Below, one piece after another: positions 182 to 26,669 of a DNA stretch of 32,773 nt. Numbering within the stretch: the first letter of the stretch is position 1; each line of letters opens with the position of its first letter. A program made the position numbers and the translations under genes. Origin of the DNA: Perkinsus olseni (taxonomy: Eukaryota); assembly GCA_013115125.1 (NCBI GenBank), contig JABANN010000397.1, forward strand, positions 1 to 32,773, written 5' to 3'. The notes beneath the pieces were generated by a model, which worked only from the letters and a program-made list of their open reading frames with translations, was not told the DNA's origin and made no database searches.

Positions 182-2551
182 TCAGCTATACAAGACTCTG
201 TGTAGTTGTATCTTAACGGTGGACATAGTGAGATTCCCAGCTTGTCCAATAGGATCTATTCTATTGAACTTCAAATAACAATCGCTACCCGTTGCCCTAC
301 CACAAATACGGAAAGATGTTGGAGGAATAGACTGGGCTCTGATACATGCTTGGAGGATGGGGATGTCGAGTGAATGGACGTCGCCAGAGAGATCGAGTTG
401 AAGGCAGCCGTCGTCGTCCGGCACCGCCATCACGTCGTGGAAGTACAGTGGCTCCTCATAATTACACAGCATGAAGACCAGCTTCACCCAAAGACGATCG
501 GGGCCCGGCTCAGTTTTGACGTACATGGCGACTTCCTTCACGCTGTCGAGTCCAGTGGCGTCTGTCTCATAAGCACCATCGTGTATCTCTGTTGAAAGAG
601 ATGACGTATCATCCCCCTCATAAGGATACCTCTCAGCAACTCCTGTAGGGTCTATTGGAAGCGGGGAGTTGGTGGCGGGTGGTCGTGAGTCGACTGAAGG
701 CACACTAGGGCCTGTGTTCTGATGAGCTTCGATGCCGAACACTTCAGGGAGTTGATGCTCACCCAAACCAGATGTAGACCGCCTACCGCCTGACTCGCGA
801 TGATGCCCATCAAAGCCTGGTGCCAAGTCCATTACTTGATCAGGGAATGACGCGGAGACAGCTCCTGGCGGGTCGAATAAAGATTCCAGCAAATCCTCGT
901 TTGAGCTCGAATACTCTTTGTCGCTACTTTCGAGGCTACCGTCGTCACCATGATCATCATCAGTCTCTTTTGCGATCACTTCATAAAGTTTATGAAGTTT
1001 AACTACAGACGGACTAGACACTCCTTTGTCCTCTCCCATATCATCATTTTCATGTACGCCTACTGTCATGGCTCCCACTTGAGGTAATGGTGAATGCGCG
1101 ACGTCCGATGGCCTTATTGGCAAAATGGAGGAACCTCCAGGAGAGCGTGAAACTTGTTCAGGTCGTGCTATATTAGACATCCCAACGCCAGTGGGATTTT
1201 CCTTCAGGCTCCTCGCTGAAGGTCTCTCGTCTTTCTTGAGCCGTTTAATTGATGGTGTCGTTGGAGGGGCAGAACGCTTCCTTCTACTCATTGGAATAGC
1301 CCCTTTGGAAGGCTCTACCACACCTCGTTGATCATACCATGATGGCGGCGCCATAGGGTTAGGAGACAATAGGAAGCCGTAAGCAGAAGATTGCCAACGC
1401 GTGGCTCCATTCCTTCCCATACCAACAATGAAGCCGTCGTCTCTTACGCAAATGATGAGCTGCATGGACACTTTACCAAGTGGTGGTCTACCCTTGCCCA
1501 GAAACACGATCAGGCTTTTCACGAAGTCTTTAACTGCACCCTTATTAATCGGGGATAAGCATCTTGGGGGCCTACCGACTTCCATCAAGCCACACTTTTG
1601 CAAGGGGCGGACATGATCAACGCTATACCAGACTAGGTCCGCCTCGTCACTGCTAATAGACCACTGGCCGTCCGGTGACGCAGAGTCTAAGCCTCGAGCA
1701 GTGAAACTAGCTACCGGATCATCGCCATCCATACTGATCAGCATCTTGAAGTCCGTCAGGTTGGGGAATGGGGGGCTCACGATACTCCCGTGTACTTCAA
1801 TCGCCGTGTACGTCTCAGCTGGGAGGCTAACTGCCTGTACACGTTCCCTACCACCACCCCTCTTGATTCGATCTTCGGCTTCATTGAAGAGTATAGTATG
1901 GATGTGATCGTCCGTGCTCTCGGTCGCCCCAGATGTCGCAGACACGGCCGCCATATCCGCCGATTGTTGTCGCTCCAGCAGAATACCGTATTCAGTGTAG
2001 TTCCACTGTTTGCGTACATTTCCTTTAATACCAAGAATAATCCCTAATTCAGTATCGCAAACGATGATGTTCCTCGGAGATCTCGCCGATGACGGAGTCT
2101 GCAAGTGAAGCCTGGCGTAGAGTTCATCACCAAATTGATGGAGTAGAGTAGTGGTTCCAGAGGAGCCATGAAAGCACTTGGGTCGCCATCGGATTGAGAA
2201 GGACCCGAATCGTCTCAGAGAACGCACGGTGCCGGGCTCGTACCATACCAAATCAACCTCTCCGGCACTACCAATTGCCCACGGTGTACTGCTGCTGGAA
2301 GGTCCACCATCCAGGCCTCCCGCATAGAACCTGGCTACCTGGCCATGCAAACCGTCGGTAACCACCATCTTGAAGGCAGTAAGCATGGGAAGGTCGGGGC
2401 ATATGAAGCTCCCGCCCTGTATAACCGCGCTGTAATTCCCCGCGGGGAGGTCCACAGGCTTAATATATGACGGACCGGCTCCCATTTTTCTGTCGGCGGT
2501 TGCATACACTGTGCCCGCGAGGGAACAATACAGAAGAAGAGATGCTTTCAT
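182..2551 (-). CDS. Intronless lineage-specific secreted protein with two duplicated N-terminal domains, a basic NLS-like patch, an acidic low-complexity linker and a C-terminal globular domain
   Basis: Open frame of ~790 aa from ATG 2551 with a signal-peptide-like start (MKASLLLYCSLAGTVYA). Internal duplication: LPAGNYSA..PDLPMLTAFKM..EVDLVWY versus LPAETYTA..PPFPNLTDFKM..EADLVWY. Basic patch RRKRSAPPTTPSIKRLKK. Confidence 0.8.
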   Translation of the reverse strand: MKASLLLYCSLAGTVYATADRKMGAGPSYIKPVDLPAGNYSAVIQGGSFICPDLPMLTAFKMVVTDGLHGQVARFYAGGLDGGPSSSSTPWAIGSAGEVDLVWYEPGTVRSLRRFGSFSIRWRPKCFHGSSGTTTLLHQFGDELYARLHLQTPSSARSPRNIIVCDTELGIILGIKGNVRKQWNYTEYGILLERQQSADMAAVSATSGATESTDDHIHTILFNEAEDRIKRGGGRERVQAVSLPAETYTAIEVHGSIVSPPFPNLTDFKMLISMDGDDPVASFTARGLDSASPDGQWSISSDEADLVWYSVDHVRPLQKCGLMEVGRPPRCLSPINKGAVKDFVKSLIVFLGKGRPPLGKVSMQLIICVRDDGFIVGMGRNGATRWQSSAYGFLLSPNPMAPPSWYDQRGVVEPSKGAIPMSRRKRSAPPTTPSIKRLKKDERPSARSLKENPTGVGMSNIARPEQVSRSPGGSSILPIRPSDVAHSPLPQVGAMTVGVHENDDMGEDKGVSSPSVVKLHKLYEVIAKETDDDHGDDGSLESSDKEYSSSNEDLLESLFDPPGAVSASFPDQVMDLAPGFDGHHRESGGRRSTSGLGEHQLPEVFGIEAHQNTGPSVPSVDSRPPATNSPLPIDPTGVAERYPYEGDDTSSLSTEIHDGAYETDATGLDSVKEVAMYVKTEPGPDRLWVKLVFMLCNYEEPLYFHDVMAVPDDDGCLQLDLSGDVHSLDIPILQACIRAQSIPPTSFRICGRATGSDCYLKFNRIDPIGQAGNLTMSTVKIQLHRVLYS

Positions 2552-2710
2552 TGTTAAGGGCCGCACAAGACTTCCTGCAACTAGACTGCCAACCCGGAAA
2601 TGACACTTTTGGAGCTACTCAGGTGCGATGTCGATAGGAAATTCCAATTTGGAATAGTGGCAAAATTATCAGCAGCGCGCCCAGTTGGAACACTCGAAAA
2701 GAATTTTCCG

Positions 2711-2731: not shown

Positions 2732-3030
2732 GATAGCCGGGTAAATCCGAGCGGAATGGCGAAGATTCAAAGAAAGAGAAAAATTCACAAGACAACCGAA
2801 AGGCAGAGTTGCACGGAGCCGATCTGCCACTAAAGGCAACACGGACATCAGGACCTTTCTTGAAGAGTTTCAATTCTTCGACGGAAATCACTTCCCTGTG
2901 ATGAGTTTGTATGTACCCGGCCTCTGTTTTCTCCCCTCTCCGGACTTTATATGGCCAGTCTTGTGCTGAGTCTTTGAGGGACCCACTTCTTCTCTCTCAA
3001 TACTTTGATATTATCAAAGTACCTCGAGCG

Positions 3031-3052
3031 ACAAGAAGTTCTTGTCAAGAAC
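3031..3052. mobile_element. Putative hAT-type transposon excision footprint (target ACAAGAAC)
   Basis: ACAAGAA+GTTCTTGT+CAAGAAC = TSD[1-7]+revcomp(TSD)+TSD[2-8]. Confidence 0.65.
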
Positions 3053-4220
3053 GTGAGGCGAGTGCTGAGACTGCCTTAGCATGGTGAACTTCCTTCAATC
3101 TTCTTCTCGCGTTGTCATCACCTGATACCATGGGCACTGGAAATCCCTGCTCTCCGCTTATCGTCATCGTATTTGAACCGAGTTCAACTCGGTGCGGAGA
3201 GCTGGTGCGGTGTGAGAGCGGGATTGCGTCTGAGTATCCTATATCCGAGTTGGGGTAATTAGCTCGTGCGAGAAGAGTTATCTGCAAAGGAACGTGTCGG
3301 TGCTTCCAAATGAACCATATGGAACGGCCTAAACGGATAGGAAGGGCGGGAAGCGTAGTTTCAGATGGTGAAAGTCCGCTACTTACAGTCATGACGAGCG
3401 TGTTGAGATCAACGCCTGCCCGCGTGGCGTTATTGATAGCCTCCTCAGCAAAACGATCTGTGTTGAAAGTCGAGATCTCTTCAAAGTAGCTCGGTCCTAT
3501 GGTGACCAAGTAAGTGTCCGCTATCTTCCCCAATCCGTTATCGTTAACTATCTGCCACTCATGACTTGAAAACCTACGATCCGTCATCGAAGAACAAGCA
3601 CACCTCGATCAGAATGAGGCGAGAAGAATCATTCTCGAGTGCGGAGGTTACAAGTCTAACGAAGGCTTACCATAGTGAAGACTCTTCACTGAAGAGAGAA
3701 GGCTCAGTTCCTTGATGCCTTGAAGACTTCTTCAAGAAATGGAATCGAAGCGAACCCTTCGGTTAATAGCTGCAAGCCGTCCACAGGGAAGTCCTTGGTG
3801 AACATGGCCGCGCTCTCGAGAAAGGCTGCCTTGTCGAAACTTTCCTCGCCGTATCCTCTCAAGTCGGCCAGTATCCTCCCTCCTACTTTATCCACTTGCT
3901 TCCTCAACACCTCGGATCCTGTCTTATTCCAAGAGGCGTGGTACCCGAAATGTAATGTAATTCTGCTTGCTCTGATGGCGTATCCTTCGAGCGCGAATGT
4001 TCTCACGCCAATGTTGATAACCGGAATAGTAGTCCCAGGTGTAATTGGCTTCATCGGGCCACACAGTGTAACACGTCGGTGCTTCTTTGATGAACCACGG
4101 GTTTTTGATTGCCTTGTAGAGCTCTGGGTGGTTATTGATAGAAGAGCCAAATTCGGCTTTTCTCTGAGAAGTAGCCACGCCCAGGGAGCACAGTGGCAGG
4201 AGCTGCAGGATGGTCCTCAT
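3045..4220 (-). pseudogene. Frameshifted secreted GH18/chitinase-like (probably non-catalytic) gene
   Basis: Signal peptide MRTILQLLPLCSLGVA at 4220. The protein-like path switches frame near 4020 and near 3715, and has a +14 insertion at 3675-3696. VGGRILADLRG, FPVDGLQL and AGVDLNTLVMT resemble degenerate GH18 barrel strands without the DxDxE motif. GT-AG introns are present. The 3' end is uncertain. Confidence 0.5.
3675..3696. mobile_element. Putative hAT-type transposon excision footprint (target GTGAAGAG)
   Basis: GTGAAGA+CTCTTCAC+TGAAGAG. Removing 14 bp restores the frame across the adjacent intron (ELSLLSSL-W-FSSHEWQ). Confidence 0.7.
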
Positions 4221-4452
4221 GAGTAATGGAGGTTGCGGAACTGCCGAATACGGAGCAGACCGTTGGGTAGGTTATCTAGGGCGCTGCTCTATGGGCCCAT
4301 AGTATGGGCCAGCAGGAGCTTAGCGCAGCGTGTTCTCCTCAGGTGCGTTGTTTCTTCTGAATCGTGTGACACGGTGGCAAGGAACACGATTCGTTTCCCT
4401 TGGCGCCATGTCTCTTCTCCATGGCGGCTCATCAGGCCCTATGGCCGACGCA

Positions 4453-5540
4453 TTAACGAGAAAGACGAACCCTCAGGGTAAGCAGTCTCCCATGCCTGTT
4501 CTGCCTGGTCTTACGGGTAGCTCGCATAGCAAGGCGGGAAGGGACAAAATTTGTGTCTTTCCCCAGGAACCTGTTTTTCACACGAAGGTCCTCGGCAGAA
4601 GTATTCCAGCTCCGCAGAGCATCTCTCTTTGTACCCTCTCGGTTAAAGCAAATGTTCCAGAGTCTGGGCCCCGGGGTCTCGATTTTGGATTTGGTCTCGG
4701 TATGGAGACGATTGTTCGAGGCAATGGTTGGAGGGAGGCATCGTGCCTCCCTTTCCTCAGGCATGAATACCGAGTCCAGCCATCATCTTTCTCAATGAGA
4801 CGTGTCCGTCGCGCCGTTTGCGCCTGCCTGTCGGACAGACTCTGTCCCCCATATTCACCAGTGGCAAAGCAACACTGCGTTCCCTGGCGAGACAGGCCAA
4901 ATCTCAGCCCGGGTTCACTGCATGTACACCCAGTATAGATGTAGCAATCGTATTATTGAAGTACCAGGGTGGACGACCGTAATACACTGATACAGTGATA
5001 CAACAACGACGGATACGGCAAGCAACCAGCGCTAGAGACAGTTGATCTTTACACGCAGAAAACAAGCTCAGTCACATCTTATCTTCTTGCTGCCTCAGCG
5101 ATTCTCTGTTTCACACCGAAGCAGAGCTTCAATAACCCTGATGATCCCGATAGATATTTTGATGAGGAGGCGCCTTCGTTCAGTGGGAAGGGTACTTGTA
5201 CGTCCCCACTGACCGATTTCTGATGCAATTCCCTGTCTGTTCGCATTGAAAATCCTCGTGGCCCGGCTGATGAAATCCCGTCATTGACAGGATGTGTTCG
5301 TGTTGACAACACGCATATCCTTCAAGAAGCGTGTGGGCCGAAGGTGCGACGTTGCGTCTTACCGCCGTAGGGGCATCGATGACGACGGGGGAGAGAGTGG
5401 TCGCGTGGCAATCTCCTCAACCGAGCTCATCTTCATACAGGGTGCCAGCGTAAAAAGGGCCCACCCCTCATAAAATGTTGGGTCGGACGAGTTAGAAGTT
5501 GTAACGTACACCAATCGAGAGCACTCGTCGAGCTCTACAT
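4453..5540 (-). pseudogene. Possible degraded gene relic of unknown family
   Basis: Short protein-like minus-strand fragments (RLVYVTTSNSSDPTFYEGWALFTL; PRLWNICFNREG) that cannot be joined into an intact model. Confidence 0.25.
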
Positions 5541-5735
5541 AACTCGGTTCTCACATAACTTGGTTTCTTTTGATTACATTCACTAGTAGATAAGCCCATT
5601 GTTTTGGATTTGGAGATGCTCGATAACAACAATAGAAACCAAGCGGGAGGAGTTTTTCGTTCGCCGGTGACAAGTTGCCCTGTCAGCTCAGAGCAGCCCT
5701 AAGCTCCCACCAAATTCCCTCCGCTCCCGGAAGTA

Positions 5736-5757
5736 GTAGCAACTTGCTACTAGCAAG
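5736..5757. mobile_element. Putative hAT-type transposon excision footprint (target GTAGCAAG)
   Basis: GTAGCAA+CTTGCTAC+TAGCAAG = TSD[1-7]+revcomp(TSD)+TSD[2-8]. Confidence 0.65.
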
Positions 5758-16641: not shown

Positions 16642-18371
16642 TCAGATGTATCTACTGGGCGCTACTGAGGGGTAGTCCCTCTCAGCCAGTTGAGGAGGTG
16701 GACCAGCACTCATCGACGGCGGTCCATGGTCGTATTTTGGTATCCGGACGTTACGACCATCGGGCCCTCGGACGTACGCTCGTCCCTCGTAATCATAGAG
16801 CAGATCTCCGGTGGCAAAGTCGGCCTGGCCTTCCTCTCTGTGACGTCTGAGCGTGGTTCGATAATCACTTCACGATAAGTCCGCTGGCGATGATGTGTTA
16901 CCTCGGCGTGAAGAGAGATACTATTAGAAATGCTGGGAGGACCATGAACAACCACCCTCGGAAGGGACTCATACGATGCATGTCATAAGCATACCTGAAA
17001 TTACGGATTCGCGAATCGCTTCGCTCCGCTAAAGACGTACTGATCTTTCATCTGTTCTCCCCAAGCCATCCGCTCCCTCTCCATCCGTTGCCGACGGTAC
17101 TCCATCTCAATATCGTGCGCCCTCATTCTCGCGTGGAATCTGGCACGAGAAGGGCAGGCTTAGCACGAAAGCGCCATGAGCATGCTAAACCTTGAAGGGT
17201 GATGCCGAACGGAGCATACTAGGAGCACTGCTTTGCTACGCAGTAGTAAAGGCAGAAGGACAATAATCACCAGTAGCCACTTGACTCTTCATGGACGTTG
17301 TCGTCGCCCTAAATACTCCCACTACTGTGACAGCGGAACGAACGCGGACGCCTACGATGCATCTATCCACTGTAATATCACTCAGCGATGATATCAGTAT
17401 CGTCTGACCGCTCACCCGCTCCCTCCTATCATCATACTACTGCTGACAACAGGAGAGAGCGGCTCCTTCAATAGGACTACCGCAGTGCGACTCGTAATCT
17501 TTCGATTATTCTAATATGGATATACTATGAGGGGATTCAGAATGCATCTCCTCAGCCACTACGGCCACGAGAGGCTAATGACACGCTTGATTATCCCATA
17601 CGACCTACTACTACCGATGTCAGTGATTTACGAATCCTATTCTTCGTCGTAAAGCAAAACCGTACCACCGACTACCTTGCGTAACTCTCCTTCGGGCCAT
17701 GGAATCCAGCTCCTTCTCGTCTCTGCCATTCTTGGCCATAGGATGGGTTAGCAGCTAGTGGAAGAGGCATATACAGGCATGCCTCCTACCACTCCATGCC
17801 CTACTACTACCTTGATGATAAGCCTCATACGCCTCTCTGCTCCAAAACTGCTTCCCAGGCCCCCAAGGCTTGCCGTCATCCCGAGGCCGGCTTCCATTGT
17901 AGAACTGGCTGCCCCTGGCAGAAGATGATGAAGATGACGATGGGCCCTCCGTCGCTCGGAGCCTCTCATCGTATCTAAAGGTATCCTTCCCCAACCGCAC
18001 AGCTCATACCAACCATTTCGTAACCTATTCTACAATACAGCATATGGTACCATCGACTACATCACACAACGGCTTTACCCTCATTACTTATGCCGCTGAC
18101 CATCATCAGACAACACACTATAAGCCTCCTGTATCTCCTGGAAGAGCTTATCGGCTGAAACCACAACGCAGAGTCGGCCGACGCCGCCCCAACCAAGTCC
18201 ACTACCATTGGGCGCCTTGTTTACATCAGGATGATACTTCTTCGCTAGTGTAAGGTACGCCTTACGTATGGCCGGCTTACTAGCATCCTTCGCTACGTTC
18301 AAGGTTCTGTAGTAATTATGAACAGCCGACATGAAGGTGTCGCTGTGAACCACACAACACTTGGCAGCCAA
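16642..18371 (-). CDS. DnaJ/Hsp40 J-domain protein, multi-exon
   Basis: HNYYRTLNVAKDASKPAIRKAYLTLAKKYHPDVNK followed by ADKLFQEIQEAYSVLSD and YDE, with an intact HPD motif. The last exon reads DLLYDYEGRAYVRGPDGRNVRIPKYD. The start codon and internal exons are approximate. Confidence 0.8.
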
Positions 18372-18481
18372 TCTGACACCCTATAATTACCGCGCGCCAT
18401 TAAATCCATCAACGCAACAGCAGCTGACTTCTTTACGTAAGGAAACTATCGGACAGTAACGGTTGAGTAACCAACAGTAGC

Positions 18482-19820
18482 CTACTCTTCATCAGACGGT
18501 AGAGAAACTTTATTGCCAGACTTGCTAAGGTAAGCCTCGGGAATCTACACAGAAAAGCTACCAACCCTCATACGCAGGGAACCGTGCCTGGGATTACCTT
18601 GGAAAGCATGACATCATTAACATCCTCCCGTTTGCAACCCTTCCCAGCTGCTTCCTTCTTCAAATACCGAGTAACAACCTCGTCTCGAAGTTGTTTCCAA
18701 GGCATGCTGAGCATCGAGTCCATTATCCTACGGCTATCGACAACAGTACTACAACTACTACCTCTTCTCGGCAGTCCTCCTACGCTTGAGTGCTCGGTCA
18801 ATCTCTTCTTTCCAGCCACCCCACGCCTCATCCTCGACCGAACGCTTGTTATTGGGTGGGGGAGTAGCAGGCCCTGCACTCTGCACCAGCTGCCACAACT
18901 TCTTCATCTCCGATGGATTGTGCCTGGAGTCGCTTCAAGTCTGGTCTGTCGAATCTCTATAACGGCGCTACAATTTCAAACTGTTCTTGATGAAGTTATT
19001 GAACGCCTTCTCCTTCCTCGGAATATTATCATATCCCAACAAGGCGTCGACATAACCCCTCAATGGCCCTTGGTAGTTCTCAAATACCTACTTTTTCGCA
19101 ACTCCTACACAGTGAGAGTCCACTTTCTTACCTCCATAACGTTAGCCTGCCACCGGTCCTGCTTGGAACCCTCAGTGCTGCCCGATCCAGGCTTATAAAG
19201 CTTCCCCATGTACTTCTCCGCCTCCGATATGCACTTGTTATGTGCTGAGTACTCCTCACCGTAGAAGGTCTGGTTGCAGTCAACGCACGAGAGATACCTG
19301 ACAGCAGCCATTCAGGTGGTCGTCATCATAATCTTGATACTAAACAAACTACTCCGCGGCTCATAAACGAGTGAGCAAAGAATAATCAATCTTTTTAACA
19401 AGAAGTAGCGGTCGGGCCGAGAGGAGCTGTGTCTACGACCTACGCGTGCATTACCCTCTCTGGAGCGAACTCCCCCACACTGGACCACACCCTGGTGCAA
19501 AACCGAGGACTTCTAGGTCATCTGGCTGCCAGCCAGATGACCTAGAAGTCCTCGACAGGCCACTGAGTTTGTTAAGGGTTCAACGAATGACTTGACGATG
19601 GTAAGATCTAGGGAGCCGTAGCTTTCACACATACAATGAGAGATGCGTCTAAATACGCAAAACGCACTTGTTAGGTAGTAAGCTGGGTGCCGAAAAATGG
19701 ACCCCCGCGGAATAGAACCAGCGACCTTTTCCCGGATTACTCGCAATGCCTCTGCTGGAGATGATTTCGAACCTTGGGCTTCCTTATGGTCTCGCCACAG
19801 GCACATACGAAGGACACCAT
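18482..19820 (-). CDS. LYAR: LYAR-type C2HC zinc-finger nucleolar protein
   Basis: Exon 1 MVSFVCACGETIRKPKVRNHLQQRHC splices to EYLSCVDCNQTFYGEEYSAHNKCISEAEKY. A later exon has YDNIPRKEKAFNNFIKNSLK. Confidence 0.9.
19504..19554. repeat. Perfect 51-bp palindrome (25-bp arms, 1-nt centre) in LYAR intron 1
   Basis: CGAGGACTTCTAGGTCATCTGGCTG-C-CAGCCAGATGACCTAGAAGTCCTCG. Confidence 0.97.
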
Positions 19821-20653: not shown

Positions 20654-22211
20654 CTACTTCGAGAGCTTCTTCTTGGCTTCGGCCACCTCATCCTCCAGGT
20701 CCTTCACCACCTCCCATGCGGGCATCAAGTCATCACGACCGAAATGACCATAGGCAGCCAATTTTTGGAACTGAGAAACAGCCATGGCGCGCACGACTGC
20801 AGCTCCTTGGCAGCTTACCTGGGGCTTTTTGAGTTCCAAGTCCCTTTGGATGCACCCTGGTCTGAAGTCGAAGTTGCGCTTGACAATATCACACAAGTCC
20901 TCATCGGTCAAGCCTGGCATCGCCGAACCGTACCTGAGCACGACCATATTAAACGGGAGCGGAAGAAGGGAGCCACTCACGAGTCGACGAAGAGACTCAA
21001 CGGCTGCACGACTCCGATGGCGTAGCTGACCTGCACCAAGCAGCGCTGGCACAAGCCCGCATGCACGAGGGACTTGGCAGCCCATCGAGCAGCGTAAGCG
21101 GCTGATCTATCAACCTGACTCACGAGACCGACTGATTTGAGAGAGACTGTTGCTGGACTTGCTTACCTTGGTAGAATCCTTGCCGGAGAAGGCTCCGCCA
21201 CCGTGTGCTCCCCAGCCACCGTAAGTATCAATGATGATCTTACGACCAGTAAGACCAGCATCACCGTGAGGGCCACCAATAGTGAAAGCCTTGCTAGGAT
21301 TCAGGTGATAGATGGTATCCTCATCAAGATACTGCTTAGGGACGATAGGCTTGATAATGTACTCCATCAGATCGGCATGGATCTGCTCTTGACTGACTTC
21401 GGGGCTGAAAAGCAGCAAAGTAACAGCAGTCTCAGCGGAGCGAGGCTGAACTCACCTGTGCTGAGTAGAAATAAGAATGGTGTGGACTCTAACGGGAATC
21501 ATCTCACCGCTAGTTCCCTTTTTGTACTCTACAGTTACTTGAGTCTTTCCATCAGGTCTCAACCACTTAACGGTACCGTTCTTTCTGCAAACAGTAAGCT
21601 GATGACCCAGCTTAGTGGCGAGACTGTGGCTCAAAGGCATGAGTTCAGGGGTCTCATTAGAGGCGTAACCAAACATATGGCCCTGGTCACCGGCACCGAT
21701 CTCTTCCGGAGCCTGAGAAATACTAAGGATAAAGACAATGCTCGGAGAGGGACGAGAAAGCCTACCTTGGTTCCCAAACCGTGGACGGACTGGCCGATCT
21801 CAGGGCTCTGTTCCTCCAGTTTGTTGATCACCTCCATGGTCCTGTAGTCGAGACCCTTTGCTTCGTCATCGTAACCGATCTCCTTGCAAGCATCGCGGAC
21901 TACTTGCACAAAATCCACCTACCAAAGAGCCTGCCTGCCAGACTTAAAGCGCGGGGAGAAGGGTTTACCTTAGCGTGCGTGGTGATCTCACCAAAAATCA
22001 TCACCATGCCCGTCTTGCAACAAGTCTCGCAGGCCACACGGGAATCAGGGTCCTGTGCAAGGCAAGCGTCCAAAACAGCATCGGAGACCTGGTCACAGAT
22101 CTTGTCAGGATGCCCTTCGTTGACCGACTCGGACGTGAAGAGGAAGTGCCCCGGATGAGGGGGGCGAATCACGGTCCCGGTCTGATTAGACATGGTCGTC
22201 GAAGGAGACAT
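20654..22211 (-). CDS. MAT: S-adenosylmethionine synthetase (methionine adenosyltransferase), canonical type, 7 exons
   Basis: Motifs [72 protein letters not shown] and AAYGHFGR. Introns include 21919-21968 and 21713-21765. The start may be ATG 22211 or 22193. Confidence 0.97.
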
Positions 22212-22232
22212 ACGTGTAACAATACACTGCCT

Positions 22233-22233
<1 letters not shown>

Positions 22234-22275
<42 letters not shown>
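22234..22275. repeat. (CAA)14 microsatellite, reading (TTG)14 on the sense strand next to a TAG upstream of MAT
   Basis: Read directly from the sequence. Confidence 0.95.
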
Positions 22276-22277
<2 letters not shown>

Positions 22278-22688
22278 CCCAATTTGCCCAAGGAGCGTCA
22301 GTTGAATCGAAGAGGGCGCTCCACAACTCCTCAGCCAATTTATGAAGAAGCACGATCCCCTCGAAATTTGAGTTTGATTTCTCTGCCAGGAGGCCTATCC
22401 CGAAACCCAGATGATTCCAAAGAAATTGCAGACTAAGCCCGTTGCTGGCAACCTCCCACCGGCACTGCCGTTGACGAAAGTTCTAAGGTAAACCACAAGG
22501 ACCCTGTGTCACGGGACAACCCTTGGGAATAGTAGAAAATCGCATCTCGCTGCGCCAAAGTGATCGATCTCGACGAAACAACCGCCGCCGAAAATCATCT
22601 TTGAAAGACTTTCTACTTACGCATCCGAACACCGCATCTGGGCCGATAGCCGCGAAAGCCTATCGTTACGTCAGCTGGCATCTTCAGG

Positions 22689-23874: not shown

Positions 23875-25908
23875 TTAAGGCAATCGATCGCATATTCGAG
23901 GATGGGAGAGGCTAATACTTACAAGTGCGAAGAAAGCAACATCCGTCGTGGGGAAACCAGTTCCGCCCCAAGTAGGAGATATAACAGCTGGGCAGCGGTG
24001 AATGGCACACGCCATTTCTTCCTCATTCATAGTCGTCGTGAATCCAAACGTTTGCGAGGCACTCATCATCTCGCTATAGCTAAGGACGCCGTCTCCATCA
24101 AGGTCGGCGATTTCCATGACGCTCACAACAGCGGGACAGTGAGGTTTGCACTCGCCTGTATTTCCAACGGATGCCAGTTGTTGACAAGCCCGAACGATGA
24201 GCGATTCACCAGGATCGACAGAGCCATCACCTCGCACCGCACAGCGCTCCGTGGAGTTCGAACCTCCATCGGTGTCACCGCAGACTATTGGTACCGACTG
24301 GAATTCTTCCAAAGCCGTAGCGTTCGAACAGATAGGGTTAACATTCAGCACGAGTTCCTCCAGCTGTTTGAGGTCTCGTATGTTAGACGGCAACGACTCG
24401 ATTTTGTTGATCTCGAAAGTGAGGAATCTCAGCTTCGGCGAGTCTCGTACAAATGCTGGAGAGATGAAGCTGACCTCGTCGAAGGTGACCGAAAGGACTT
24501 GTAGGTTTGAGAGCCCCCTGAGGTCTATTCGTGTTACACCACCCGCGTCCGGTAACATGACAGATGTGAGGCTGCTGCCGTAAAGTTCCAGTGCATTCAG
24601 CTCTTCCTGCCCGAAAGCGAAGCCACAGTTTTGCAGCCATTCTCTAGGGGCACTGGAGAAGTACTCAATCCTCGTGTATGACTGTATCCGCTCGACTATC
24701 GGAACCGAGCAGTTCTCATCAGGAGTAAGATGCACCATGCGGCAATCACAGGACGGGAACTCGAGCAGAGGATGCACTTTTATATGACAGTCTTTACTGT
24801 AGTTAACCACCTCGGCGTCACAATCCCGTCCGTATTCTTGATAGGCCGTGAAAGCAACGAGACTTACACTCAGCGTAAGGGACACGAGCCAAGCCACTGC
24901 CTTACGGCCCGTGCTGAAATACCTGTTTCTCTCATTACATGCGCTACGCGCTGATGATGAGAGCATCAGGTAGTCCCACATGGAGTGAATGTCGTGCAGT
25001 GACTGGCCGAATGGAAATACACTCGTTAGCAATGCCATAAAGCTCCTCGCTCGTAAGACGTGCCAGGACCTCGGATTCTGTACCGAACTGATAGCACTCA
25101 ACTGAACCAGTACGAAGCCGATATCCGACAGCACGTCACCGGCCAGTGCGACGAGCCTGTTCTGATATAGGTAGATCATAGGCGCGAAGGTGATGTTGAA
25201 TGCCACGAGACATGCTTGCGCCATTATTGTTGCTGGAGGCTTCACAACACTAGCATCACCCCCACTGGCAGACCATGCCGAGCCACCAAAGCTAACCAGC
25301 TGCAACAGTTGCATGGTAACCTCTAGAGTTTCCGAGGCTATGTGCCGATACCAAAACCACTCGCCGGAAATCTCAAACTTGTCACTCGTGTGAACCACGA
25401 ATGTCTTTGCAGCCTTGGCCATGGAGAACCATTCTTTATCAGGCTCTGCTGTCTCCAAGTTCTCCTCAGATTGCACGCCCTGGCTCATCTTTGAAAGTGT
25501 TCTGAAGATCGAAGTGCTGCGAAGAACGCCCGACACACTGGCGCCCCTCAGAAGAGTCTTAAAAAGCATATGGAACCTTCTAATCAGCATCATACCGGCA
25601 GTGATAGCGACGAGGCCGTACACGACGGCAGCGAAAACACTCCAAGGATCCGATACATACTCGACCTCTGGCGGGATGAAGACGACATCAGGGTTGGCAT
25701 CCACCAATTCTTTCGGGTTCGGGGGTACCGGGACCTCCACCTGTGCGAAGGAGTATATGGAAGCGATGAGGCAAACGCCGGAGATGCCGGCAGCGGATGC
25801 ACAGAGGTAGGCTATGCGAACCCTCCTATTCTCGACAGCCTGTAGAGTCGAACCAAGCCGTCGGATAGTATCACGAGTATCGGTGAAGAACTCCTGAATA
25901 ACGAGCAT
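23875..25908 (-). CDS. Intronless multi-pass membrane protein with a Cys-capped leucine-rich-repeat region and an EF-hand-like loop
   Basis: 677 aa with several hydrophobic helices in the N-terminal half. LRRs LSNLQVLSV, PKLRFLTFEINKIESLP and LKQLEELVLNVNPIC. EF-hand-like loop DLDGDGVLSYSE. Confidence 0.85.
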   Translation of the reverse strand: MLVIQEFFTDTRDTIRRLGSTLQAVENRRVRIAYLCASAAGISGVCLIASIYSFAQVEVPVPPNPKELVDANPDVVFIPPEVEYVSDPWSVFAAVVYGLVAITAGMMLIRRFHMLFKTLLRGASVSGVLRSTSIFRTLSKMSQGVQSEENLETAEPDKEWFSMAKAAKTFVVHTSDKFEISGEWFWYRHIASETLEVTMQLLQLVSFGGSAWSASGGDASVVKPPATIMAQACLVAFNITFAPMIYLYQNRLVALAGDVLSDIGFVLVQLSAISSVQNPRSWHVLRARSFMALLTSVFPFGQSLHDIHSMWDYLMLSSSARSACNERNRYFSTGRKAVAWLVSLTLSVSLVAFTAYQEYGRDCDAEVVNYSKDCHIKVHPLLEFPSCDCRMVHLTPDENCSVPIVERIQSYTRIEYFSSAPREWLQNCGFAFGQEELNALELYGSSLTSVMLPDAGGVTRIDLRGLSNLQVLSVTFDEVSFISPAFVRDSPKLRFLTFEINKIESLPSNIRDLKQLEELVLNVNPICSNATALEEFQSVPIVCGDTDGGSNSTERCAVRGDGSVDPGESLIVRACQQLASVGNTGECKPHCPAVVSVMEIADLDGDGVLSYSEMMSASQTFGFTTTMNEEEMACAIHRCPAVISPTWGGTGFPTTDVAFFALVSISLSHPRICDRLP

Positions 25909-26669
25909 TGAATGATAACAAAGTCATTAAATGAGAACTGACCTCAAAGGACGCCCGACGAGAGCCGCGACGCGGCATGGAGGTGCTGTCCTCAGTTGAC
26001 ATTAAGAGCTAAGAACAACACCTGCAACGAGTGCAGGGGCAGTCTGATTAAGGCTACTGCTTCTTTTGTGCTATGGCGTGGCCCAAGGAAACGATGCTTG
26101 TCTCCTGACATGTCTACTTGATTGTCCACCGACACTTCCCTCAGCCATTTGTCGTCAACACAACTACCAGCAAAGCATTACCACAAACCTGCATCAACTG
26201 TAACGGAAACAGAACTACAAGTAACTCAGCCAATCACGCCAAAGCCAACCGCAGCATGCCGAGAGGGAAATATGGTCGCGGCTCAGAAATGACCTCAGAA
26301 CAACCCAGGCGAGACGAAACCGAAGAAAACGATGATGATGAATGCCACGGTATTCGGTTAGAGTAAGAAGCGATAGAAACGAGACAATACGAGCTGAGTG
26401 ACCGTAGCGTGGAGGGCAACAAATCCGGGCAGGAAAGCACCACCGACTCTCAAGGCGAGCAGCGACAATAGCGTGGACAATGATATAACCACTAATGGTC
26501 TTCATACAGGTCACTGCTTGCTTCCTGCATTACGAGACTGCCGTCGATGAGGTATCCAAAAAGCTAGCGCTACTACAGCTGCCGAAACCGCAACTACTCC
26601 CGCTATCAATGCCCCTCGCTTCAGTCGTGCATTCGTAGCTGCCTGAACGAGAGCGGCCCCTAGCGGAAG

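Follow-up and report, generated by a model that had tools for sequence, protein, structure and literature searches.

A recurrent 22-base scar in Perkinsus olseni DNA that probably records excision of a hAT-type transposon

Footprints of the Ac/Ds transposons arise when hairpins on the flanking DNA are opened and joined, often via microhomology, and two studies give arms of up to 20 nt for those found in yeast (PMC5873905, PMC1978519). Hermes makes 8-bp target duplications and has the target preference 5'-nTnnnnAn-3' (PMC10368747). Mutator-like elements (MULEs) make duplications of 8-10 bp, and one of them, Muta1 of Aedes aegypti, also forms hairpins on flanking DNA (PMC5499845). Here we describe a 22-base motif that recurs in a 32.8-kb stretch of Perkinsus olseni DNA (contig JABANN010000397.1; hereafter the window, to which all counts below are confined). 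We consider it likely that each of these 22-mers was left by repair after a cut-and-paste transposon of hAT type had inserted once and then excised. The chemistry would be a known one with an unusually uniform and dense natural outcome, which in Perkinsus is not in print as far as our literature search reaches.

The motif has the form X[1-7]+revcomp(X)+X[2-8], where X is an 8-mer, and is thus the case n=8 of the general form X[1..n-1]+rc(X)+X[2..n] for which the window was scanned. Because the motif is its own reverse-complement form, it has no strand. Both a direct reading of the bases and the exact scan confirmed the three perfect copies that had been named in the original prediction:

3031..3052, no strand, exact 22-base scar (7+8+7) on X = ACAAGAAC, found in the exact scan
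3675..3696, no strand, exact 22-base scar on X = GTGAAGAG, found in the exact scan
5736..5757, no strand, exact 22-base scar on X = GTAGCAAG, found in the exact scan

Exact matches numbered 146, 11, 2, 1, 0 and 3 for n=3, 4, 5, 6, 7 and 8, respectively, and 0 for each n from 9 to 15. Uniform composition would give 0.031 (n=6), 0.002 (n=7), 1.2e-4 (n=8) and 7.6e-6 (n=9) matches per window, so that the earlier figure of about 1e-4 expected sites at n=8 was correct. The three exact n=8 matches are therefore far above chance, and the counts at short n are the chance background. When up to one mismatch was allowed in the 14 constrained positions, n=8 gave 5 sites versus 0.0 in 15 dinucleotide-model shuffles, n=7 gave 0 (0.2 expected) and n=9-12 gave 0; n=9 and n=10 yielded 0 even with 2 mismatches permitted. 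The peak that had been anticipated at a single length was thus found in the window, where it is sharp and falls at n=8, both for exact copies and with 1 mismatch.

Two of the five sites at n=8 carry one mismatch each. In addition, a scan for variants, which used the general form expected when both flank hairpins at an 8-bp duplication are opened, returned a 21-base and a 19-base relative of the motif:

2634..2655, no strand, one-mismatch 22-base scar on X = ATTGGAAT, the mismatch being A at 2636
4826..4847, no strand, one-mismatch 22-base scar on X = GTCTGTCC, the mismatch being C at 4827
4289..4309, strand not assigned, 21-base variant on X = CTATGGGC, of the form X[1-7]+rc(X)[2-8]+X[2-8], that is, the 22-mer minus one G of a G run
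18454..18472, strand not assigned, 19-base classical two-sided footprint on X = CAGTAACC, of the form X[1-7]...X[2-8]

The 21-mer has 13 constrained positions, with ~5e-4 such sites expected, and the 19-mer has 11, with ~0.008 expected per class. The inner bases of the 19-mer comprise 3-4 that are palindromic from the left and 1-2 from the right, with one T common to both, so that palindromic bases stand on both sides of the 8-bp duplication with a different, 1-base joint. In total, the 32.8 kb hold seven duplication-type scars (3 exact, 2 one-mismatch, the 21-mer and the 19-mer). All seven events are built on an 8-base unit, and in all seven the insert is flanked by X[1-7] and X[2-8], each minus only the base that would have contacted the element. 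Six of the seven fall inside a span of 3102 bp (p=2e-4 if placement is uniform, and p=0.018 if only 40% of the window could accept scars), a clustering compatible with local hopping that recurred or with a non-coding zone favoured for landing.

Every full scar contains two overlapping palindromes, one with x8' at its middle and the other with x1', and these are complementary to the bases abutting the presumed element. Perfect palindromes with a 1-base centre and arms of at least 7 are in excess in the window as a whole (14 vs ~2.7 expected from 30 shuffles), whereas centres of 0, 2 and 4 bases occur no more often than chance predicts (2, 2 and 1 observed vs 2.6, 2.4 and 2.2 expected). All but one of the 14 one-base-centred palindromes lie between 978 and 5759, and nine are halves of the six clustered scars. 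The remaining five stand alone:

978-998, stand-alone palindrome, 10+1+10
3001-3021, stand-alone palindrome, 10+1+10, with the 7 bases on its left matching the predicted duplication at 5/7
3177-3193, stand-alone palindrome, 8+1+8
5299-5313, stand-alone palindrome, 7+1+7
19504-19554, stand-alone perfect palindrome, 25+1+25

The arms of the palindrome at 19504-19554 (25 bases) are longer than the 20 nt given as the upper limit for yeast Ac/Ds footprints (PMC5873905, PMC1978519). The stand-alone palindromes may be one-sided outcomes of the same repair process. The uniformity claimed for the footprint therefore holds in part: six of the seven duplication-type scars are one product, but five one-base-centred palindromes lack the target-duplication signature.

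Independent sequence supports the scar bases. Eight public runs from two studies cover the stretch, and four of these (X1, X2, X7 and X8) were compared, in all cases as assembled contigs rather than raw reads; contigs from both studies and at least four samples carry the scars. The scar at 5736-5757 is crossed gap-free by contigs of all four runs. That at 3031-3052 is crossed gap-free in X1 and X2, with 3046 C>T at full depth, and position 3046 in X7 and X8 has the window's letter. For the 21-mer at 4289-4309, no gap is listed in the X1, X2 and X8 contigs. The two one-mismatch copies turn out to be decayed scars and not chance near-matches, because they are perfect in other haplotypes or strains: at 2634, 2636 A>T restores the motif in the second haplotype of X1 (140.8/206.6) and X2 (230.1/319.8), and at 4826, 4827 C>T does so in 6 contigs of X7 and 7 of X8, at full depth in both runs, X1 and X2 keeping C. 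The scars are thus real DNA that is decaying by ordinary substitution.

At two places scars seem to be present in some haplotypes or strains and absent from others. The scar at 3675-3696 is present in X1 and X2, whose sole gap there is +3 letters at 3449. Across the same scar, the X7 contig has 152 letters against 166 window letters (14 gaps, net -14 over the whole span) and the X8 contig 383 against 396 (15 gaps, net -13 over the whole span). The second place is a site that is unscarred in the window:

2838..2845, strand not assigned, unscarred 8-mer AACACGGA, at which the second haplotype of X1 and X2 has extra letters

Here one X2 contig inserts 10+2+2 = 14 letters behind 2838, 2840 and 2841, none of which are found in X7, X8 or the window, and one X1 contig has at least 8 extra letters (2+6) at 2838-2841. 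When X2's 14 letters were set by hand into the window sequence, the result was a perfect 22-mer on AAGTCGGA.

The 8-mers themselves carry a bias of the kind described for Hermes. With the pattern nTnnnnAn fixed before the 8-mers were inspected, T was found at position 2 in five of the seven and A at position 7 in four, or 9 of 14 positions against a base rate of 0.235 (binomial p=0.0014). This preference is not common to every hAT family. The flank-hairpin chemistry of Hermes is reportedly that set out by Zhou et al. 2004, a study cited in PMC1978519, and we infer the likeness to its hairpins from the scars. The window thus resembles Hermes in the 8-bp duplication and in the nTnnnnAn bias at 9/14 positions (PMC10368747), and differs from it in that neither a transposase nor terminal repeats of Hermes type came to light there.

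Likenesses to Ac/Ds, which has been followed in plants, Saccharomyces cerevisiae and Candida albicans, extend further: the 8-bp duplication is kept on both sides (PMC5873905, PMC1978519), the palindromic inserts are centred on the complement of the element-contacting base (PMC5873905), and joining after hairpin opening is by microhomology, a step that in the window is read from the sequence. Unlike the scars described here, Ac/Ds footprints are heterogeneous, with 28 types among 128 Candida revertants and arms of at most 3 nt there. Six of our seven scars instead have a full 8-base inverted duplication flanked by 7+7. A further difference is that the scars in the window are natural, fixed or polymorphic in the genome, and known from the scars alone.

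Taken with the contig support, the n=8 peak, the palindrome centres and the Hermes-type target bias support the hAT-like excision put forward in the original prediction. The annealing step proposed there, through the shared inverted target duplication, is also workable on paper, as opened flank hairpins would carry complementary 8-base tails. According to this scheme, an element would insert across an 8-bp staggered cut, whereby the 8-mer X would be duplicated on both sides. On excision, the transposase would nick one base into each flank and that flank's 3' terminus would be joined to the opposite strand, leaving both flanks capped by hairpins with the complement of the element-contacting base at the tip (x8' on the left, x1' on the right). 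The left hairpin would read x1..x7-x8'-x7'..x1', and the right hairpin, on the bottom strand, x8'..x2'-x1-x2..x8. Host enzymes would then open each hairpin at least 8 bases from its tip, which would leave 3' tails that terminate in rc(X) on the left and in X on the right. Because both tails derive from one target duplication, they would be perfectly complementary and could pair over all 8 bases, after which flaps would be trimmed, gaps filled and the strands ligated. For any 8-mer and any position of the nicks, the product would always be X[1-7]+rc(X)+X[2-8] and the net change +14 bp; this uniformity would arise because the longest available microhomology is built in by the target duplication. 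The 19-mer at 18454 would have begun in the same way, its hairpins being nicked close to the tips and joined through a single base. A possible extension, which we offer tentatively, is that a hAT-like element, still active and of very low copy number (or else a transposase mobilising tiny elements), hops locally through non-coding Perkinsus DNA, and that the host opens the hairpins far from the tip and joins them by microhomology, so that almost every visit leaves the same +14-bp scar.

Several observations weigh against hAT-type excision. The one-base offset of the first hAT nick, which the scheme uses, is reportedly from Zhou et al. 2004. No terminal-inverted-repeat element with an exact 8-bp duplication was found in the window. 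The original prediction had noted that no transposase is visible there, and a Pfam scan of 12 open reading frames and 114 stop-to-stop frames of at least 90 aa bears this out, none of the latter matching a transposase family. Among the contigs of the four runs, no filled allele (X-element-X) was seen. As for empty sites, 14-letter length differences of the kind foreseen are apparent at two sites, but the empty state of 3675-3696 in X7 and X8 is probable rather than proven, since it is read from net length over a span, and at 2838 the window's AACACGGA differs at 2/8 positions from the scarred haplotype's AAGTCGGA, the two agreeing only at 6/8. At the 2634 scar, X7 and X8 also have T at 2636, yet most of their contigs carry 2637 G>C and hence a different mismatch. 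A flanking duplication was sought at the five stand-alone palindromes and none was convincing, the best being 5/7 at 3001. The target-bias test, moreover, comprises seven sites only. Finally, the literature search, which covered main texts, turned up no paper dealing with hAT elements or with footprints of excision in Perkinsus.

Five weak terminal-inverted-repeat candidates with a one-mismatch duplication (11/16 terminal bases) were judged to be chance. Among other elements on record, Dada elements of Perkinsus marinus have 6-7 bp duplications (PMC3706591), and Merlin remnants have been reported in the literature for the same species. Introner elements of Amoebophrya, with 3-5-nt direct repeats (PMC7789003), were considered and have no bearing on the scars.

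The nearest rival to a hAT origin is another superfamily that forms flank hairpins and makes long duplications, above all a MULE, and we regard such an origin of the scars as unlikely. Muta1 does form the required flank hairpins, and its duplications may measure 8 bp (PMC5499845, PMC5225508), but its other properties do not fit what is seen here. Its flank hairpin is even (43+43 nt) and predicts palindromes without a central base, a class that in the window is at chance level (2 vs 2.6 expected). Its duplications are a mixture of 8 and 9 bp, yet n=9 and n=10 both gave 0. It excises mostly precisely, in >90% of events when duplications are present, and it is reported to have no target sequence preference, the nTnnnnAn bias being one reported for Hermes (PMC5499845, PMC5225508).

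An account that dispenses with transposons altogether would have a polymerase engaged in replication or repair change template twice, through snap-back synthesis or a short template switch, so that 8 bases are copied in inverted form before synthesis resumes. The scar can formally be written as two strand switches, no element was found in the window, and stand-alone palindromes without a duplication signature occur in the same region. Template-switch mutations and polymerase-theta snap-back insertions do resemble the scars in being local inverted copies at a break or fork, but their lengths vary and they have no fixed 8-base unit, one-base turns or target bias. All seven events here are of 8 bases and none of 7 or 9-12; the one-base turn at both switch points would be the mark of a covalently closed hairpin rather than of fold-back priming; the T2/A7 bias is not expected from template switching; and a copying error from a fixed template would not be expected to yield the 19-mer, with its different joint on an 8-bp duplication. 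We therefore consider this origin quite improbable. Very unlikely, in our judgement, is an origin in which no mobile element takes part and a transposase-derived nuclease of the host (a hAT-like or RAG-like enzyme that has been domesticated) cuts non-coding DNA in staggered fashion, the breaks being sealed as hairpins. Many scars with no element in 32.8 kb, and their clustering in one 3.1-kb stretch, would fit such an enzyme, and Kat1, going by a title in a citing paper, is a domesticated hAT transposase forming hairpins. However, the direct repeat of X around the inverted copy needs a prior 8-bp duplication, which insertion supplies and for which a nuclease alone would require extra fill-in and a second cut, and no gene for a domesticated-transposase nuclease was seen in the window. 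Library chimeras can in principle yield small palindromes, but the same scars occur in contigs from two studies and at least four samples, with ordinary substitutions inside them; a sequencing or assembly artefact is thus rejected, its probability being negligible.

With hAT-type excision as the preferred reading, the scars also invite comparison with V(D)J joints, in which P nucleotides are palindromic additions from a sealed hairpin opened away from its tip. RAG hairpins differ in having no unpaired tip base and no target duplication, and P additions are usually of few bases. The parallel between flank-hairpin excision and V(D)J joints has been drawn before (PMC5499845, PMC1978519).

All seven scars lie outside long open frames, several of them close by. 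The scar at 2634 is ~70 bp beyond the start of the frame 182-2566 (-), whose closest relatives are all labelled Perkinsus olseni in their source, with at most 86% identity. A minus-strand frame has its ATG at 4218-4220, and the 21-mer at 4289 lies ~70 bp beyond it; the 19-mer at 18454-18472 is just beyond a DnaJ-domain frame at 18087-18380 (-). The scar at 3675-3696 stands between the minus-strand frames 3045-3608 and 3704-4216 and may be intronic. That at 3031-3052 holds the stop codon (3045-3047) of the frame 3045-3608 (-), and the variant 3046 C>T of X1 and X2 is still a stop codon; were the 14 extra bases absent, the frame would, on our reading of the sequence, continue for ~30 more codons. 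In P0001, a gene model of the source, part of 3045-3608 is connected to 182-2338 (frame 182-2614), with the junction at residue 93, and if this model is right the scars at 2634 and 3031 would be intronic. P0001 skips an apparent signal-peptide start near 2551, and two neighbouring genes may therefore be merged in the model. The earlier description of the region as a decaying accessory zone is not supported, as the region has long open frames and its haplotypes are 94-99% alike.

Elsewhere in the window, an S-adenosylmethionine synthetase gene at 20657-22394 (-) extends over at least 5 reading frames and is presumably split by several short introns; a CAA repeat run occupies 22221-22282, and a frame with leucine-rich repeats (LRR) and an EF-hand lies at 23878-25923 (-). 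The exact 5+6+5 motif on a 6-mer (0.03 expected) is at 22598-22613, ~200 bp beyond the S-adenosylmethionine synthetase frames, and this single occurrence may be chance.

Other haplotypes or strains also have opposite-strand contig joints, at 2777/3131, 5468/5543 and 5038 or 5122/5715; these may reflect inversions of small size or duplications in inverted orientation, and two adjoin scars. Loose contig ends or opposite-strand joints near 3049, 2777/3131 and 5715 could be structural variants or filled sites. The stretch 5425-5553 is multi-copy in all four runs, with a summed contig depth of 547-966 vs ~78-113 alongside, and many contigs diverge at 5543/5553. It is not a known RNA gene, because Rfam and tRNA scans of the window gave 0 matches, and it has no convincing terminal repeats.

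Excision footprints are normally studied per reporter gene and are heterogeneous, whereas here nearly every excision seems to have left one recognisable product. Past transposon traffic could thereby become countable, datable by decay (perfect vs one-mismatch copies) and comparable between strains from sequence alone. The product also bears on DNA repair in one little-studied alveolate, namely on hairpin opening far from the tip and on joining by 8-base microhomology. The scars are, in addition, indel markers that vary from one haplotype or strain to another in a mollusc parasite of commercial importance, and they adjoin genes, one supplying a stop codon and others lying just outside open frames. 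If a still-active element is indeed at work, the visits of the transposon could be counted and dated along a trail that varies from strain to strain, and excision rates, landing-site choice and the parasite's break-repair pathway could be estimated directly.

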